A stretch of DNA of 64,000 bases from Escherichia coli (lineage in GTDB: Bacteria; Pseudomonadota; Gammaproteobacteria; Enterobacterales; Enterobacteriaceae). The first letter of the stretch is position 1. Each line of letters begins with the position of its first letter. The notes under the pieces are model-generated. The model saw only the letters and a program-made list of their open reading frames with translations. It was not told the origin of the DNA and searched no databases. The stretch is taken from the NCBI RefSeq assembly GCF_051903065.1, contig NZ_CP178438.1. One strand, given 5' to 3'. Made by a program: the position numbers and the translations under genes. Below, one piece after another: positions 28,346 through 33,592 of this stretch.

Positions 28346-30442
28346 TTATTGTCCAACCGGTACTTCTCGCTCTGCCGTCATTGGATAGAGCTGGTATTTG
28401 CGTGACAGCATTTGTCCACCATCACGCGTCAATGGTGTCCACGAAACCACCGCGCGGTTGCGGTTAGGTCCAATGGTCATCAAGTCGAACGGAATCGAGA
28501 TATAAAAACCTTTACTAAAGCCGCCTTCGCCGTAGTCATCTTTAGATACGTTACTGATTGCCGCCCATACCCCTACCGCCACGCCGCTGTCAAAGCGTTT
28601 GGCGACGTCGATCGTTGCGCCTTTATCTTTTGCCAGATATTGCCCAACGCTAAGTTTCATCAGTACGCCATTGAGCGTCGGCGGGTTCCAGTAAGCCGTC
28701 ACGAAACCTGTGGGCGTGGAATAATCGGTGAAGCGCATCATGTTGTCCCAGTCACGTTGCTTCACGTAGTTAACGTCCACACCCAGCGCCCAGCTGGCAT
28801 CTAGCGGGCGATAAAGCAGCTCGGAACCGACACCGGCGTACATCGTTTCCAGATAACCGCCATACACCTGGCCATAGAAACCATTGCCTAAGTCGGCAAA
28901 GTAGTTCGCCTGCAAGTTGTTGAGATAAACGTCATTGCGAACGTAATCACGGATATGCGTGCGCACGCGGGGCAGGGTAGAGTCCGCGGGCAACAGTGAA
29001 GACTTAAACTTGTCGTAGTTGTTGTAAATATTGGTGAAAATACCGCCATCAAGCAGCAGGTGGTCGGTAAACCAGTAGCGGGCGCTGGACATCAGCCCCA
29101 GCTGGAACATATAGAAATCTTCCGGGCCGCCCAGCGACTGTGAAAGTGTTGGGTTGAAAGAGTAGCTAAAGCGATCTTCACGAATACGGTAGCCCCGACC
29201 AAAGGCAGAAAGATCTTCAGCTTCAACACGTTGTTGTTGCAGTGGCTCTGATTGACCAGGCGCTGTACCTGCCAGCTGTTTGCGCAGGCTGGCTACGTCG
29301 GTTTCGGTAGTCACCATCGCCATATGCTCGCGCTTTTGCGTCACGCTAATCTTCTCAACGCCTTGCGGCAGGTTATTCACCAGAATCCGGTTGGCACGAT
29401 CGACCGCTTCACGAGAGTCACGGTATTTGTATTGCTGACCAGACATATACAGCGTCTTATCGCGTAGCTGAATTTCTGGCGCGTCAAAGCCCGCGTTATA
29501 CTTCAGGGCGGTAAGTTGGTTTGCTACCGTGGTGTACTGCAATCCTTCAGATTCAGGCGCAGGTTGATATGCCGGTTTTGGCGTATCGCGCAGGGCAGGG
29601 CGCAGATCGTTGAAATTGGTCCGTAAAGTGAAACCAAACATCAACGTGTTACCGCGTTCATAACTCAGGTTGAGGTCTGCCCAGCTGGCAGCGCGATAAA
29701 CTGCACCGACGTTGAAATGGCTTGCCTGAGGCAGTTTGCCAGCGAAATCATTCTGGTAATTGTTGCCGTCGTATTCGAGTTTCAGACGCAGGGGATTCCA
29801 CGGCGTTTGATACTCAATGCCGCCAAAGATGGAGGCTGGGCCACGAAAGATATCGCTAAAGCTGATATCGCCCGCATCGTGAGACTCTGCGCGATGACAA
29901 TATTTATCGCTCACCCGGCAAAACGGGTTGGTAATATTGCCCGCATTACCGGCGTAGCCCCATGCCATCCCGAGGGTGAAATCAAATGGCCCCGCTTGCT
30001 TGCTGGCCACCAGATACTCACTGTCAAACCGACCCGTACCAGCAATATCACGTTTACCAAACGCCACTTGCGGTAGCCAGTAACCTTCTTCCCACAGGCG
30101 AAGTTTAAAATCGAATGATTTGTCTTTGTATGACTGATCGCCGCTGAAATCTTCCCACTGGCTATATTTGCGTGTGCGCACATCCGTATAACGAATGGTG
30201 CCTTCCAGCCATGGGAACAGCGCCACGGACGTGGAGTAGAAACGGTACTGATCGTTATCCCGGTAGTTGACGCTGAATTCACCTTCCGGTGCGATGCGCG
30301 CATTTGGCATCTGCAACAATCCTGTACCGCCAAAGTCCGATTGCGACGAACCCAGCGGATCCGGGTAGGTTAATACTTCAGCATGACAGGCACTGGAGAC
30401 GGCAATGGCCAGGCAGCTTAAAAGATAAGAATTCTTCTTCAT
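28346..30442 (-). CDS. gfcD: Group 4 capsule outer-membrane protein GfcD
   Basis: 698-aa ORF with signal peptide, conserved operon position. Confidence 0.9.
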
Positions 30443-31188
30443 CAGTCAGGAACACGTTGCGTTAAAACAGACACAATCTGGTCATTTAAATCAGCATATT
30501 TTTCGGGCAGTACATGCGCAGAAAAGCCTAACCAAAGCTGGCTGCCAGGCGGTGGTTCCACATGTCTTTTATTCCACAGGGCAACAGGGGCGACGACAGT
30601 CTCACCCTCAGGCGTAATCACGATAACGTTATTCTTGTCCGCGCCTGCAAGACGGGGGTGATCTTGCAGATAATCGGTAACGCTACGGCCTGCCTGCCAC
30701 GGCAATTGCCCAGCCCCAGAAACCGCACCCAGCAGAGTAATAGTCACCGGGCGCTGTACGGTATAGAGCGTATAGTCCCCGACCAGCGGGGGATTGCTGT
30801 TCTCATCCACTCGTACAAAATCAGGGTCCAGTTTGATCGGTAAGCGACCAGTGATATTGAGATTGAGTAACTGCTGGCGCACGGATTTAATCGTTGCCGC
30901 CACATCGTCGTCAGCTTCTGCTTCCCAGGAAGCAAGCTGTGCCATGACATGTTGGTAGTCTTTAAGCGCTTTAGCTTTCACCGCAGAGTCGGTCAGCAAG
31001 GCACCAGGCCACCAGAGGCGATCGCGCAGTTGCGGTTGTGTCACCAACTGGACAACATTTTCCACGGGGCCAACGGAAAGTGTCTGTTGTTCGCCAGGCA
31101 GATAAATAGTCACCGTTCCTTGCGCAAAGGCATGGGGTGTCATTACGTAAAGTACGCTGGCAATGAAATACGACTGTAATATATTCAT
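30442..31188 (-). CDS. gfcC: Group 4 capsule periplasmic protein GfcC
   Basis: 248-aa ORF with signal peptide [22 protein letters not shown]. Confidence 0.9.
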
Positions 31189-31829
31189 GGTGCGGGTTTA
31201 AGAAACGTCATTTCTACGGGAATAACCCCTGCGCCTAACATTTGTCGACTTTGACGAACCTGGCCAGTAGCCGAATCGACCCAGAATATGTTTTGCCACT
31301 GTTTTTCTGGCAGCGTGGAAGTCACCTCTTCCTGCCAGACATTACACAGCACATCGCGACCCGCAATATGCAGCGTCTCTAATCCAGCAAAGGAAAAAGT
31401 GGAACTCAGGGTCGCAGAGCGAAAATGGTTGTCTTCACTCCAGAGAATATCGCGCGTCCAGCGGCTGCCGTCTTTTATTGCCAGCGCGTTACGCAGAGGG
31501 TCCTGCCCGGAATTTGTCACTTCCAGCAGATTATTATTAAGTTTGACGGTCTTTAAAAGACGTCCATTGTGGGTAACCAGCATGGCGTTATCCTGGGATA
31601 ACCATTTGCTTTGTTCTTGTTCTATATATCCCAGTACCACAAAGATTCGTTGCCCTTCATTAAGGCGTAAATACATCGTGGAATAAGGCAACGCCTGGAT
31701 CTGCTGATCCGCTACGGTGATATCCTGATTATCGAAAAGGCTGGCGCGAAATGTATCGACCATACTTTGCTGGCTGTGCGTACATCCCGCAAGAAATAGT
31801 GCGAAAATCGATAAAATAAGAGGGCGCAC
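31185..31829 (-). CDS. gfcB: Group 4 capsule lipoprotein GfcB
   Basis: 214-aa ORF MRPLILSIFALFLAGCTHS (lipobox). Confidence 0.9.
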   Translation of the reverse strand: MRPLILSIFALFLAGCTHSQQSMVDTFRASLFDNQDITVADQQIQALPYSTMYLRLNEGQRIFVVLGYIEQEQSKWLSQDNAMLVTHNGRLLKTVKLNNNLLEVTNSGQDPLRNALAIKDGSRWTRDILWSEDNHFRSATLSSTFSFAGLETLHIAGRDVLCNVWQEEVTSTLPEKQWQNIFWVDSATGQVRQSRQMLGAGVIPVEMTFLKPAP

Positions 31830-31935
31830 CTTTAATCCTTGAAAGGTTAATTAAAAAAATGCAAATCTCTAAAGCCCGGTACGAATATCGCAACCGGGTA
31901 TTATTTAACTTTAATTTCGACGCGTTTAAGCAGAA

Positions 31936-32241
31936 TTAGCGCGTAGTGGACGTGGTGGTTGAGGTGTTATGAGAACCGCCATCGCCACTGTCATTTGCTG
32001 CAACTACTGCCAACGTCGCCACACCAACAGCCGTTGCCACACCGACAACTGTCGCCGTGCCGACAGCGCCAGCAGCCACGCCACCAGTGGTAGCAGCCGT
32101 CGTGGTTGCACCGGTAGTGGTCGTTGTGGTGCCAGTAGTACCCGTCGTTGCCTCGGTCCCGTTTGCTGCTTCAGGGGCAGCAAACGCAGCTGGCGTCGTC
32201 AACATGAAGGCCATAAGGATTGCAGAAAGCTTGTGTTTCAT
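31936..32241 (-). CDS. gfcA: Thr-rich small membrane protein GfcA
   Basis: ORF MKHKLSAILMAFMLTTPAAFA followed by Thr/Gly/Ala/Val low-complexity; start trimmed to ATG 32241. Confidence 0.85.
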   Translation of the reverse strand: MKHKLSAILMAFMLTTPAAFAAPEAANGTEATTGTTGTTTTTTGATTTAATTGGVAAGAVGTATVVGVATAVGVATLAVVAANDSGDGGSHNTSTTTSTTR

Positions 32242-32681
32242 AACTTTTCCTTTATTCATCGCATGGACAATACGTACGCTTGAGATCAGGATTGTCTACT
32301 TTGAGTATAACATCCTTGTGAAATCTCCCTTTCCTCATACCACTTGCACTATATACAGCGGGTGAGAAAGGCGCGCAGAGGGAAATATAAGATTGTTAAC
32401 GATTTCCCTCTGGAAATACGACTTGTAGGCATAAGATAAATCTTAGAAAAATACAAATTAAAGATAAAAAATTGTTAAGAAAGCTATTAACTATTGTTGG
32501 TGATATAGTTTCAAGTGGTACTATAACTGGCTGTTAAGTGGCATTTATAACTATTAGTTGCAGAGATATTCGGTTAAATGGATTAGTTTCCTGGTAAAAA
32601 AGTAACTTGCGTTCTAATGCATGGTGTTGACTATTGAACTATTCCAATAAAACCAGTCAGCTTTAAACAAGCAGCGTCATA

Positions 32682-32894
32682 TTAAGAGAGATAAACATTT
32701 GCCGCTGTTGGTCCTCGCAGGCCATTTACGCGACAAAATTCCACGCGTAATCCTGGTATAAGCACTTCTGCGTCGCGGGGAGTGAATGCGGAAATATGGA
32801 CCTGGACTTCTTTACGACCGTCGGAGGGGATAATGAATCCTTTGCCGCTTTTGCGATCAAAGGTTTTGACAATTCCTGTCATTTTACGGGACAA
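32682..32894 (-). CDS. cspH: Cold-shock-domain protein CspH
   Basis: 70-aa [40 protein letters not shown]... (CSD fold). Confidence 0.92.
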
Positions 32895-33180
32895 ACAAAT
32901 TCCTTACTGAAAATACTGCGCTGCACTATACGGGGTTAATAAAATAAAGCCAGCGATATTTAAGACCGCCGGACGGCTAAAATAAAATTTGCTTAATCTC
33001 AATTATCATGCGTTAATAGCTGCGTCGGTTTGAAAGACAGACAGCATACAAAGTAGTTTACTAAAGCAGTTCTCATTATCAGGCATTATCCCCTTCTTTT
33101 GAGTCTCTCTCCTGAACACTAAGTAGTTTCTGTATTAAAGCCCTGTTTGCCGAAAGGCCCAACAATGAAGGAAGTAAAAT

Positions 33181-33393
33181 ATGTCTAATAAAATGACTGG
33201 TTTAGTAAAATGGTTTAACGCAGATAAAGGTTTTGGCTTTATCACTCCTGATGATGGCAGCAAAGACGTTTTCGTCCATTTCACCGCCATCCAGAGCAAT
33301 GAATTCCGCACGCTGAACGAAAATCAGAAAGTTGAATTTTCTATTGAGCAGGGGCAACGTGGCCCCGCGGCAGCGAACGTTGTTACGCTCTAA
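33181..33393 (+). CDS. cspG: Cold-shock protein CspG
   Basis: 70-aa [41 protein letters not shown]... with RNP motifs. Confidence 0.95.
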
Positions 33394-33394
33394 G

Positions 33395-33592
33395 GTTGCC
33401 GTTATTACTCAACATCTCCATTTCCGCTGTCCATGTTGTCATGGTTCACAGTACCGTACATCGGCATTCGATGTGACGGAGCGAAACCCTTTGGGCGCTA
33501 AGTGTATTTTTTGTAAATCGACGATGATCACCTTTGATAACGTCGCGCTGCAAATACGCACTGACCATGCGCCGCTGGATTTCACAAAATAA
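33395..33592 (+). CDS. ymcF: Small CxxC zinc-ribbon-like protein downstream of cspG (start codon uncertain)
   Basis: Open frame ...HFRCPCCHGSQYRTSAFDVTERNPLGAKCIFCKSTMITFDNVALQIRTDHAPLDFTK ending at 33592; the track ORF 33332-33592 overlaps cspG so the true start must be a non-ATG or internal codon. Confidence 0.45.
   Translation, partial: VAVITQHLHFRCPCCHGSQYRTSAFDVTERNPLGAKCIFCKSTMITFDNVALQIRTDHAPLDFTK

Follow-up and report, generated by a model that had tools for sequence, protein, structure and literature searches.

gfcA, the threonine-rich first gene of the Escherichia coli group 4 capsule operon: low complexity in the protein and a nearly constant length of the gene

The gfcA locus and the layout of its product

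The window analysed here is a stretch of 64,000 nucleotides from Escherichia coli. Positions 31936-32241 on its minus strand correspond exactly to gfcA, an already known E. coli gene which opens the group 4 (O-antigen) capsule operon gfcABCDE-etp-etk. This capsule system, of which GfcA is a component, occurs in EPEC, EHEC and Shigella sonnei. According to the open reading frame list and the translation, the coding sequence comprises 101 codons and a TAA stop, and the RefSeq coding sequence measures 306 nt. The 101-aa product, MKHKLSAILMAFMLTTPAAFAAPEAANGTEATTGTTGTTTTTTGATTTAATTGGVAAGAVGTATVVGVATAVGVATLAVVAANDSGDGGSHNTSTTTSTTR, starts with MKHKLS and ends with TSTTR. Another in-frame ATG lies 18 nt further upstream, at 32259, and would yield a protein of 107 aa; the shorter form is favoured because a Shine-Dalgarno sequence, AAGGA, can be read at 32248-32252 (minus strand), 6 nt upstream of the ATG at 32241.

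Three further genes of the operon lie on the same strand. The lipoprotein gene gfcB occupies 31185-31829 (Pfam PF11102 YjbF, E = 3e-68), gfcC occupies 30442-31188 (Pfam PF20616 and PF06251) and gfcD, which encodes an outer-membrane protein of the YjbH family, occupies 28346-30442 (Pfam PF06082, E = 2e-269). Upstream of gfcA, the window holds cspH and cspG. The 425-nt query taken from window positions 31886-32310, which contain the whole coding sequence of gfcA, matches O157:H7 genomes at 100% identity; in these, RefSeq names the product 'threonine-rich inner membrane protein GfcA'. The K-12 orthologue (b0987, formerly YmcD) also has 101 aa and also precedes gfcB; the two proteins share 98% identity and differ at two residues (A26T, A50T). 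K-12 carries an IS1D element 33 bp upstream of the gfcA ATG, whereas the upstream region of the window is intact over ~420 bp. Protein identity and the position before gfcB-gfcC-gfcD place the gene in the GfcA orthologue group. The name gfcA, which the initial annotation had given to the gene, is thus borne out by coordinates, neighbours and the identity to b0987.

Other signals at the locus were also considered. Two antisense open reading frames, 31969-32283 and 32057-32365 (both plus strand), were rejected as genes; the antisense frame is open by construction because the reverse complements of ACN, GCN, GGN and GTN codons never form stops. A weak match to isrG over gfcA is noise, its 15.5 bits lying far below the gathering score of 100. 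Promoter and terminator scans, an Rfam search and a search for the ops element (GGCGGTAG) returned nothing tied to gfcA.

The composition of GfcA is strongly biased. Threonine (28), alanine (22), glycine (13) and valine (9) account for 72 of the 101 residues (~70%), and they make up all 27 residues from 34 to 60 and 55 of the 62 residues from 29 to 90. In the 28 long open reading frames of the window these four amino acids represent a fraction of 0.29, against which the GfcA content has a binomial P of 2e-18; for threonine alone, P is 4e-13. No 62-aa window in these 28 frames exceeds 0.55, versus 0.89 in GfcA. The low-complexity Thr/Gly/Ala/Val core proposed at the start, from which the string TTGTTGTTTTTTGATTTAATTGG (residues 32-54) had been quoted, is therefore real at the protein level (72/101 residues, P about 2e-18). 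The threonine richness is already known: the gene name records it and the composition is in print (PMC8592465, PMC8346858). For a genome scan the feature carries little weight, being a known peculiarity of a known gene.

From the translation, we infer that the GfcA precursor is built of four modules: a signal peptide, a disordered Thr tract, a Gly/Ala/Val segment and an acidic linker with a Thr/Ser tail. The predicted Sec signal peptide (residues 1-21; 32179-32241, minus strand) combines a K-rich n-region and a hydrophobic core with an AxA site. Cleavage, placed by rule, would occur between A-F-A and A-P, and the motif A-[FWY]-A-A-P is conserved among GfcA and YjbE relatives. The Thr-rich low-complexity tract (residues 29-52; 32086-32157, minus strand) is delimited by composition and predicted to be disordered, and its length varies between species. 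An AF2 model of GfcA gave pLDDT values below 50 for residues 16-63 and a mean pLDDT of 46, which is low confidence.

The conserved Gly/Ala/Val-rich hydrophobic segment (residues 53-82; 31996-32085, minus strand) hardly varies among the GfcA proteins of Escherichia and Enterobacter and may be a marginal transmembrane helix or a docking element. It contains an imperfect 18-nt repeat in three copies (32014-32067, minus strand; 72-83% identity), which encodes the hexapeptides AVGTAT, VVGVAT and AVGVAT (residues 59-76). The C-terminal part, NDSGDGGSHNTSTTTSTTR (residues 83-101; 31939-31995, minus strand), consists of an acidic, Gly-rich linker and a Thr/Ser tail; its GDG motif and the T-rich tail are collinear in GfcA, YjbE and P0032, a sequence which bridges the two families. 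Pfam and NCBIfam scans assigned GfcA to no family, and their only entry, a sub-threshold WGxxGxxG match, was regarded as a low-complexity artefact. PDB sequence searches with GfcA and GfcD gave no meaningful match.

Repetitiveness of the DNA and length of the gene across E. coli

The initial annotation had described the underlying DNA as correspondingly repetitive. This holds, but only weakly: enrichment in the gfcA core is confined to 6-7-mers, and Tandem Repeats Finder reports a single weak array (15 bp x 2.4 copies, 76% matches, score 44). A repeat search of gfcA returned short imperfect families only, the best of them being the 18-nt unit in three copies at 32014-32067. Within the 189-nt core, exact direct repeats reach 8 nt at most; by the same measure windows of gfcBCD average 6.9 nt with a maximum of 9, which puts the core in the range of ordinary coding sequence nearby. 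There is also no excess over synonymous-codon shuffles. In 2,000 such shuffles, which kept the protein and its codon usage, the observed repetitiveness turned out to be average or slightly low, with a longest repeat of 8 nt versus a shuffle mean of 9.3 and a k=8 score of 1 versus 4.2. A perfect tandem array, the mark of a slippage-prone contingency repeat, was not found in gfcA.

Exact repeats stay at or below 8 nt because codons are mixed. Threonine is encoded by ACG (12), ACC (9), ACT (5) and ACA (2), glycine by GGT (6), GGC (6) and GGG (1), and alanine by GCA (9), GCT (8), GCG (3) and GCC (2). When gfcA is recoded with one codon per residue, 15-nt repeats appear. The codon list given for the core, ACC/ACT/GGT/GCA, is accordingly wrong in detail: the commonest threonine codon is ACG (12/28) and synonymous codons are mixed.

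The length of the gene was followed in 5,426 complete E. coli genomes, of which 3,668 carry gfcA (3,614 by megablast). The census was read through samples and identity bins, and a few more alleles with small indels may have escaped it. When the ranking obtained with the 425-nt query was sampled twice at even spacing, every full-coverage row but one had a span of 425 nt; more than 200 full-length rows were sampled, and the span equalled the query length in all of them except the indel alleles described below. A second query of 126 nt, covering the Thr tract of the K-12 allele, retrieved 3,603 genomes and showed an equal span in 59 of 59 full-coverage rows sampled. By identity to this query, 2,528 genomes fall at >=99%, 1,037 at 95-99%, 36 at 90-95% and 2 at 80-90%, from which indels of at least 6 nt concern at most about 1.2% of alleles. 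At least part of the 90-95% bin is a SNP-rich allele of normal length, of the s100248 type; 16 genomes are >=99% identical to s100248.

Two indel alleles were identified. In H52, an in-frame deletion removes the 15 nt at 32107-32121 (minus strand), flanked by ACCAC microhomologies, to give a 96-aa allele; a query specific for the junction found 2 genomes. In strain RMDEC465, the 21-nt unit ACTACTGGCACCACAACGACC (encoding TTGTTTT; 32119-32139, minus strand) is present as a perfect tandem duplication, which produces a 108-aa allele and was found in this strain alone by a duplication-specific query. The duplication is bounded by the 8-nt direct repeat ACTACTGG, which is perfect in the s100248-type allele, while the second copy in the window reads ACTACCGG. 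Both alleles are in-frame, lie inside the Thr tract and are flanked by direct repeats of 5-8 nt.

Overall, GfcA is 101 aa long in about 99.9% of the E. coli genomes which carry the gene. Frequent length polymorphism among strains was not observed, with 3 variant genomes in about 3,600. The suggestion that such tracts expand or contract in frame is thus correct insofar as slippage does produce both events in the Thr tract (+21 bp, -15 bp), but their frequency is negligible. The initial annotation had proposed a comparison of lengths across E. coli and named identical length in diverse strains as the result which would contradict it; this is essentially the result obtained.

The main polymorphisms are of another kind: about 32% of genomes lack the entire operon, and insertion sequences account for further variation. 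gfcB is found in 3,702 and gfcD in 3,714 of the 5,426 genomes, and cspH adjoins appA where the gfc operon is lacking. Partial gfcA matches correspond to IS insertions (IS1 and IS3), in addition to the known IS1D upstream of K-12 gfcA. Between the window allele and that of s100248, 10 codons differ synonymously and 1 nonsynonymously, codons 43-52 included. Nonsynonymous changes in gfcA are confined to the T/A/V/G/L/I class, and synonymous changes inside the Thr tract leave the amino acids unaltered. Judged by these alleles, the mostly synonymous differences are the signature of purifying selection on the GfcA protein, which erodes DNA repeats at the same time.

These data bear on the idea that gfcA contains a slippage-prone tract, which would generate length variation between strains and possibly tune or switch capsule function. 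The two in-frame alleles at short direct repeats in the Thr tract, the lengths of 101, 94-96 and 85 aa in different species and the enriched 6-7-mers are in line with it. Nevertheless, 3 of about 3,600 carriers vary while more than 200 other sampled rows are equal in span, exact repeats stop at 8 nt with no real tandem array, and synonymous diversification breaks up the repeats. On/off switching does not take place, because every indel keeps the reading frame, and where the gene is really inactivated, an IS insertion or the loss of the entire operon is responsible. A slippage-prone, variable tract is largely refuted by the census, and we hold it to be very improbable. Since codons are mixed, exact repeats do not exceed 8 nt, differences are mostly synonymous and length is fixed, the region is not a slippage-prone DNA repeat; its low complexity is a property of the protein under purifying selection.

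Relatives of GfcA and the B-C-D module

Relatives of GfcA are barely detected by sequence searches: among 1.84 billion representatives, phmmer found just 15 matches. A word-indexed protein search mostly returned E. coli variants with frameshifts or truncations, together with E. albertii orthologues whose starts were extended too far, and told little about the breadth of the family. Relatives were retrieved by gene position instead, through GfcB/YjbF, at 19 genome loci. In all 19, and at 4 further loci, a small open reading frame with a signal peptide and low complexity lies directly before the gfcB/yjbF homologue. The order of this small frame, yjbF/gfcB, gfcC and yjbH/gfcD holds with or without wza/wzb genes after it, and two more distant phmmer matches also precede yjbF-gfcC-yjbH operons. 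A-B-C-D is the unit conserved across genomes, and wza/wzb/wzc may be present or absent.

The small frames have a common layout, which comprises a signal peptide, a low-complexity region, a conserved Gly/Ala/Val segment and a Thr-rich tail. GfcA-type proteins measure 101 aa in Escherichia, 94-96 aa in E. albertii and 85 aa in Enterobacter sp., and the change in length between species sits in the Thr tract. Of the 14 YjbE-type sequences, drawn from at least 8 genera, 13 have 80 aa and that of Buttiauxella has 81, a constancy in line with purifying selection. The Arsukibacterium form is longer (126 aa) and contains a poly-Pro stretch, a Cys pair and a Thr-rich tail. Aligned with Enterobacter sp., P0032 and YjbE, E. 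coli GfcA has its Thr tract (about residues 32-48) as an insertion; TTGGVAAGAVGTATVVGVATAVGVATLAVVAANDSGDG and the Thr tail are conserved.

YjbE (PF11106) is the first gene product of yjbEFGH and thus takes the operon position of GfcA, before the homologues YjbF/GfcB, YjbG/GfcC and YjbH/GfcD. Its layout is similar as well, with a signal peptide ending in A-x-A before A-P, an S/T/A/G region, an AVGVA-type patch, a GDG linker and a poly-Thr tail. In contrast to GfcA, YjbE has 80 aa, is Ser-rich and lacks both the long Thr tract and a transmembrane-grade segment. E. coli GfcA does not match the Pfam YjbE family (PF11106) even at E <= 10, and its relatives score below the gathering threshold of 27.9 bits (E. 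albertii GfcA 16 bits, Enterobacter sp. 15, P0032 24). hhalign of GfcA with YjbE aligned residues 1-25, the signal peptides (93.8%), and nothing beyond. BLASTP without composition correction gave 37% identity over 70 residues, with an E-value inflated by composition bias, and found no match with default filters. The case for homology between GfcA and YjbE is built on synteny, on collinear motifs and on P0032 as the one bridging sequence. GfcA, which shares the position and the collinear layout, is the positional and architectural counterpart of YjbE and probably a divergent relative, rather than a demonstrated member of PF11106.

Export, function and comparison with known systems

In EPEC, deletion of gfcA abolishes the buoyancy and the capsule staining of the cells, and a gfcA plasmid restores both (PMC3853201). 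The gene is therefore needed, in trans, for capsule formation. GfcB, GfcC and GfcD assemble at the outer membrane, and it has been suggested that GfcA is possibly directed to GfcD, its location being described as 'inner membrane or secreted' (PMC8592465). On the basis of its sequence and gene context, GfcA is most likely a largely disordered, Sec-exported accessory peptide of the GfcBCD module. In the mechanism which we favour, the signal peptide would be cleaved after A-F-A upon export, and the largely unfolded 80-aa mature protein would cooperate with the GfcB-GfcC-GfcD module of the periplasm and outer membrane, either as its client or as its cofactor. Docking or insertion would fall to the Gly/Ala/Val segment, and the Thr-rich parts would serve as hydrophilic spacers. 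We place this mechanism slightly short of an even chance. Taken as a whole, the explanation given here for gfcA (its identity, layout, low-complexity nature and function, with the mechanism at that lower level) has a probability of roughly 0.75.

The proposed partner of GfcA in this mechanism was modelled in part. A model of GfcD residues 1-330, from a 19-sequence alignment with AF2 (pLDDT 56), predicts a 12-stranded N-terminal barrel; no sequence match was found among PDB chains. With this model, Foldseek returned intimin/invasin (E = 6e-7), FapF (E about 2e-6) and KdgM, an oligosaccharide porin with the best target-normalised TM-score and rmsd among the barrel matches (0.74 and 3.9). Since these matches are about equal, the predicted barrel could pass a polypeptide or a sugar chain. 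The similarity of the GfcD barrel to FapF has been reported before (PMC8346858, PMC9603273). An IS1 element between yjbE and yjbFGH raises colanic-acid production, for which the authors inferred Rcs activation, unmeasured in that strain (PMC8117528). This result is compatible with an exported peptide and does not prove one.

The RefSeq name carries a different view, in which GfcA is a static single-pass inner-membrane protein acting with Etk or the Wzx/Wzy machinery; the signal peptide would be cut, the Thr tract would be periplasmic, residues 55-84 would form a transmembrane helix and the tail would be cytoplasmic. The 19-residue Kyte-Doolittle maximum of 2.16 passes as a membrane segment, AF2 places a low-confidence helix at residues 55-84 (pLDDT 50-59), and both are equally compatible with the annotated anchor; the near-invariance of the segment among GfcA orthologues points the same way. 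However, summation of the Hessa values gives a positive result (+0.35 to +2.0 kcal/mol), which makes the segment marginal. The flank which follows it is acidic, and mature GfcA has no K/R except for the last residue. The probable paralogue YjbE, with Hessa values of +3.9 to +7.7 kcal/mol, has no transmembrane-grade segment and still shares the tail and the partner genes. We favour full export for these three reasons, and an exported peptide working with GfcBCD because it is A-B-C-D that stays together across genomes, whether or not wza/wzb/wzc are present, and not GfcA with Wza/Wzb/Wzc. The inner-membrane topology, and with it a role beside Etk or Wzx/Wzy, comes second, with roughly one chance in three. 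A regulatory leader role is scarcely credible by comparison. As the operon's first open reading frame, with 28 Thr codons, gfcA could recall a Thr-codon-rich attenuator such as thrL, which makes no functional protein. Yet it encodes a signal peptide and a conserved non-Thr core, its synonymous changes far outnumber the nonsynonymous ones, no terminator-like site follows the frame and folding of the intergenic region gave no significant signal (z = -1.15). This role is excluded by trans complementation of the deletion (PMC3853201), together with the signal peptide and the lack of a terminator.

A further reading goes beyond export to the periplasm. GfcA and YjbE would not be membrane proteins but surface anchors or carriers of the O-antigen capsule, possibly mucin-like, with Ser/Thr residues O-glycosylated (for instance with O-antigen units), which pass through the GfcD barrel and anchor or seed the capsule. 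The A-B-C-D synteny, the marginal segment, the acidic flank, the Thr tail common to GfcA and YjbE and the modelled FapF/intimin-like barrel are all compatible with it. GfcA is predicted to be exported and disordered and it is Thr-rich, Thr-rich tails are kept in GfcA, YjbE and the Arsukibacterium relatives, and the barrel model matches the polypeptide-passing FapF as well as intimin and invasin. The long N-terminal Thr tract is nevertheless dispensable in relatives (Enterobacter sp., P0032), and the barrel resembles the sugar porin KdgM no less closely (TM-score to target 0.74, rmsd 3.9). The mucin-like idea, which the initial annotation also raised, was already published as a speculation (PMC8592465), and another published model has GfcD export a lipid-anchored polysaccharide (PMC11494523). 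A glycosylated or carrier role of this kind appears unlikely to us; if true, GfcA would represent a bacterial proteoglycan-like capsule anchor. For work on GfcA, the comparative layout offers a practical guide: the Thr tract varies, the Gly/Ala/Val segment is invariant, the Thr tail is conserved, and the whole is always tied to the B-C-D genes. It designates the segment and the tail, and not the conspicuous Thr tract, as prime candidates for mutation.

Several known systems help to situate GfcA. Ser/Thr-rich, O-glycosylated low-complexity regions of bacterial envelope proteins are the substrates of PglL-type enzymes. Like GfcA as predicted here, they are exported and disordered, with a high content of Thr, Ala and Gly, but the gfc operon holds no dedicated transferase and the Thr tract is absent from close relatives; we know of no glycosylation of GfcA.

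In the functional amyloid systems FapC/FapB-FapF and CsgA-CsgG, small Sec-exported unfolded proteins are encoded beside a dedicated outer-membrane barrel, an arrangement which the predicted properties of GfcA and GfcD recall. Unlike these amyloids, GfcA has three hexapeptides only and no Q/N-rich imperfect repeats of about 20-40 aa, and to our knowledge no amyloid phenotype is associated with it. Moreover, the FapF match of the modelled GfcD barrel is not unique, intimin and KdgM being equal or better.

The phase-variable simple-sequence contingency loci of Neisseria and Haemophilus consist of long perfect tandem arrays, with frequent length change and frame switching. gfcA resembles them as a biased coding sequence of short motifs in a surface-structure gene, but its exact repeats reach 8 nt at most, 3 variants occur in about 3,600 genomes and the indels are in-frame. 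Placed beside these loci, gfcA is a clean example of low complexity at the protein level without an unstable repeat at the DNA level.

Distribution of the capsule region and origin of the window

The group 4 capsule region that begins with gfcA is not universal in the species. The whole gfcABCD(E-etp-etk) region is absent from about 32% of the complete E. coli genomes (n=5,426), with gfcA detected in 3,668, gfcB in 3,702 and gfcD in 3,714 of these 5,426 genomes. In genomes without the gfc region, cspH directly adjoins appA. The window carries gfcABCD at 28346-32241, with cspH (32682-32894) as the upstream neighbor.

Over gfcD (28346-30442) and cspH/cspG (32600-33450), which flank gfcA, the window shares 100% identity with strain 23CRST027, but its identity to those O157:H7 genomes that were among the sampled matches reaches only 98.7-99.2%. 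The gfcA stretch itself (31886-32310), however, shows 100% identity to O157:H7. By these comparisons, the window probably does not derive from a typical O157:H7 strain, or the region is mosaic.

Allele length and insertion sequences

Strain RMDEC465 (locus L029, 235-561) encodes a 108-aa GfcA which results from a perfect 21-bp tandem duplication (TTGTTTT). The duplication sits between two copies of ACTACTGG, at a position equivalent to 32119-32139 in the window. Only the s100248-type allele, a SNP-rich allele of normal length, has this direct repeat in perfect form; in the window allele, a synonymous T>C change disrupts it.

Insertion sequences recur in the gfcA neighborhood (loci L001, L002, L003 and L028). 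K-12 carries an IS1D element 33 bp upstream from the gfcA ATG; this site corresponds to 32274/32275 in the window. IS1 is found at the gfcA 3′ end in one strain and inside the gene in another, and a third strain has gfcA interrupted internally by IS3. Of the two strains with the 15-bp gfcA deletion, one has an IS5 copy about 105 bp upstream.

Annotation, reading frames and RNA features

GfcA is not covered by any Pfam or NCBIfam model, and its naming therefore depends on near-exact identity. Full-length alleles with a single substitution (e.g. R101P, V74A or V65A) are labeled ‘hypothetical protein’ in RefSeq (genome matches H10, H39 and H48-H52, among others). Metagenome protein sets contain many frameshifted variants of 107-109 aa (P0008-P0029), which all share one alternative-frame C-terminal tail because other frames are open across the Thr-rich tract. 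In the window, other-frame ORFs occur at 31969-32283 (+), 32057-32365 (+) and 32004-32183 (-). The plus-strand ORFs of about 100 aa antisense to gfcA were rejected as spurious, the antisense frame being open by construction.

The gfcA-gfcB intergenic region (31830-31935, minus strand) contains a CCCGGU...ACCGGG hairpin followed by U-rich sequence. The hairpin fails the terminator scan, and the fold of this region is not significant (z = -1.15). In EPEC, gfcA expression was reported to be by far the highest among the surface-structure genes analysed (PMC3853201), and expression differences within the operon might therefore merit attention. The cspA thermoregulator RNA family RF01766 matches strongly (159.7 bits) at 33024-33447 (+), spanning the cspG 5′ UTR and coding region.

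Relatives at the gfcA position

Small proteins also open related operons. P0032 (86 aa; loci L031-L033) is encoded by the first gene of a yjbF-gfcC-yjbH-wza-LMWPc operon. With a phmmer match to E. coli GfcA (E = 4e-4) and a sub-threshold score of 24 bits against Pfam YjbE, it bridges the two families. A second protein, P0033 (105 aa; locus L030), is the first gene product of a yjbF-gfcC-yjbH operon adjoining malM/lamB. In Arsukibacterium (loci L025-L027), the ORF at the gfcA position comprises about 126 aa (about 1952-2353 in L025). With its run of 7-11 prolines, its CEGxDPLVDGEC cysteine pair and its TTTTVTVTGTGTGTNTG tail, it is a more elaborate version of the GfcA layout.
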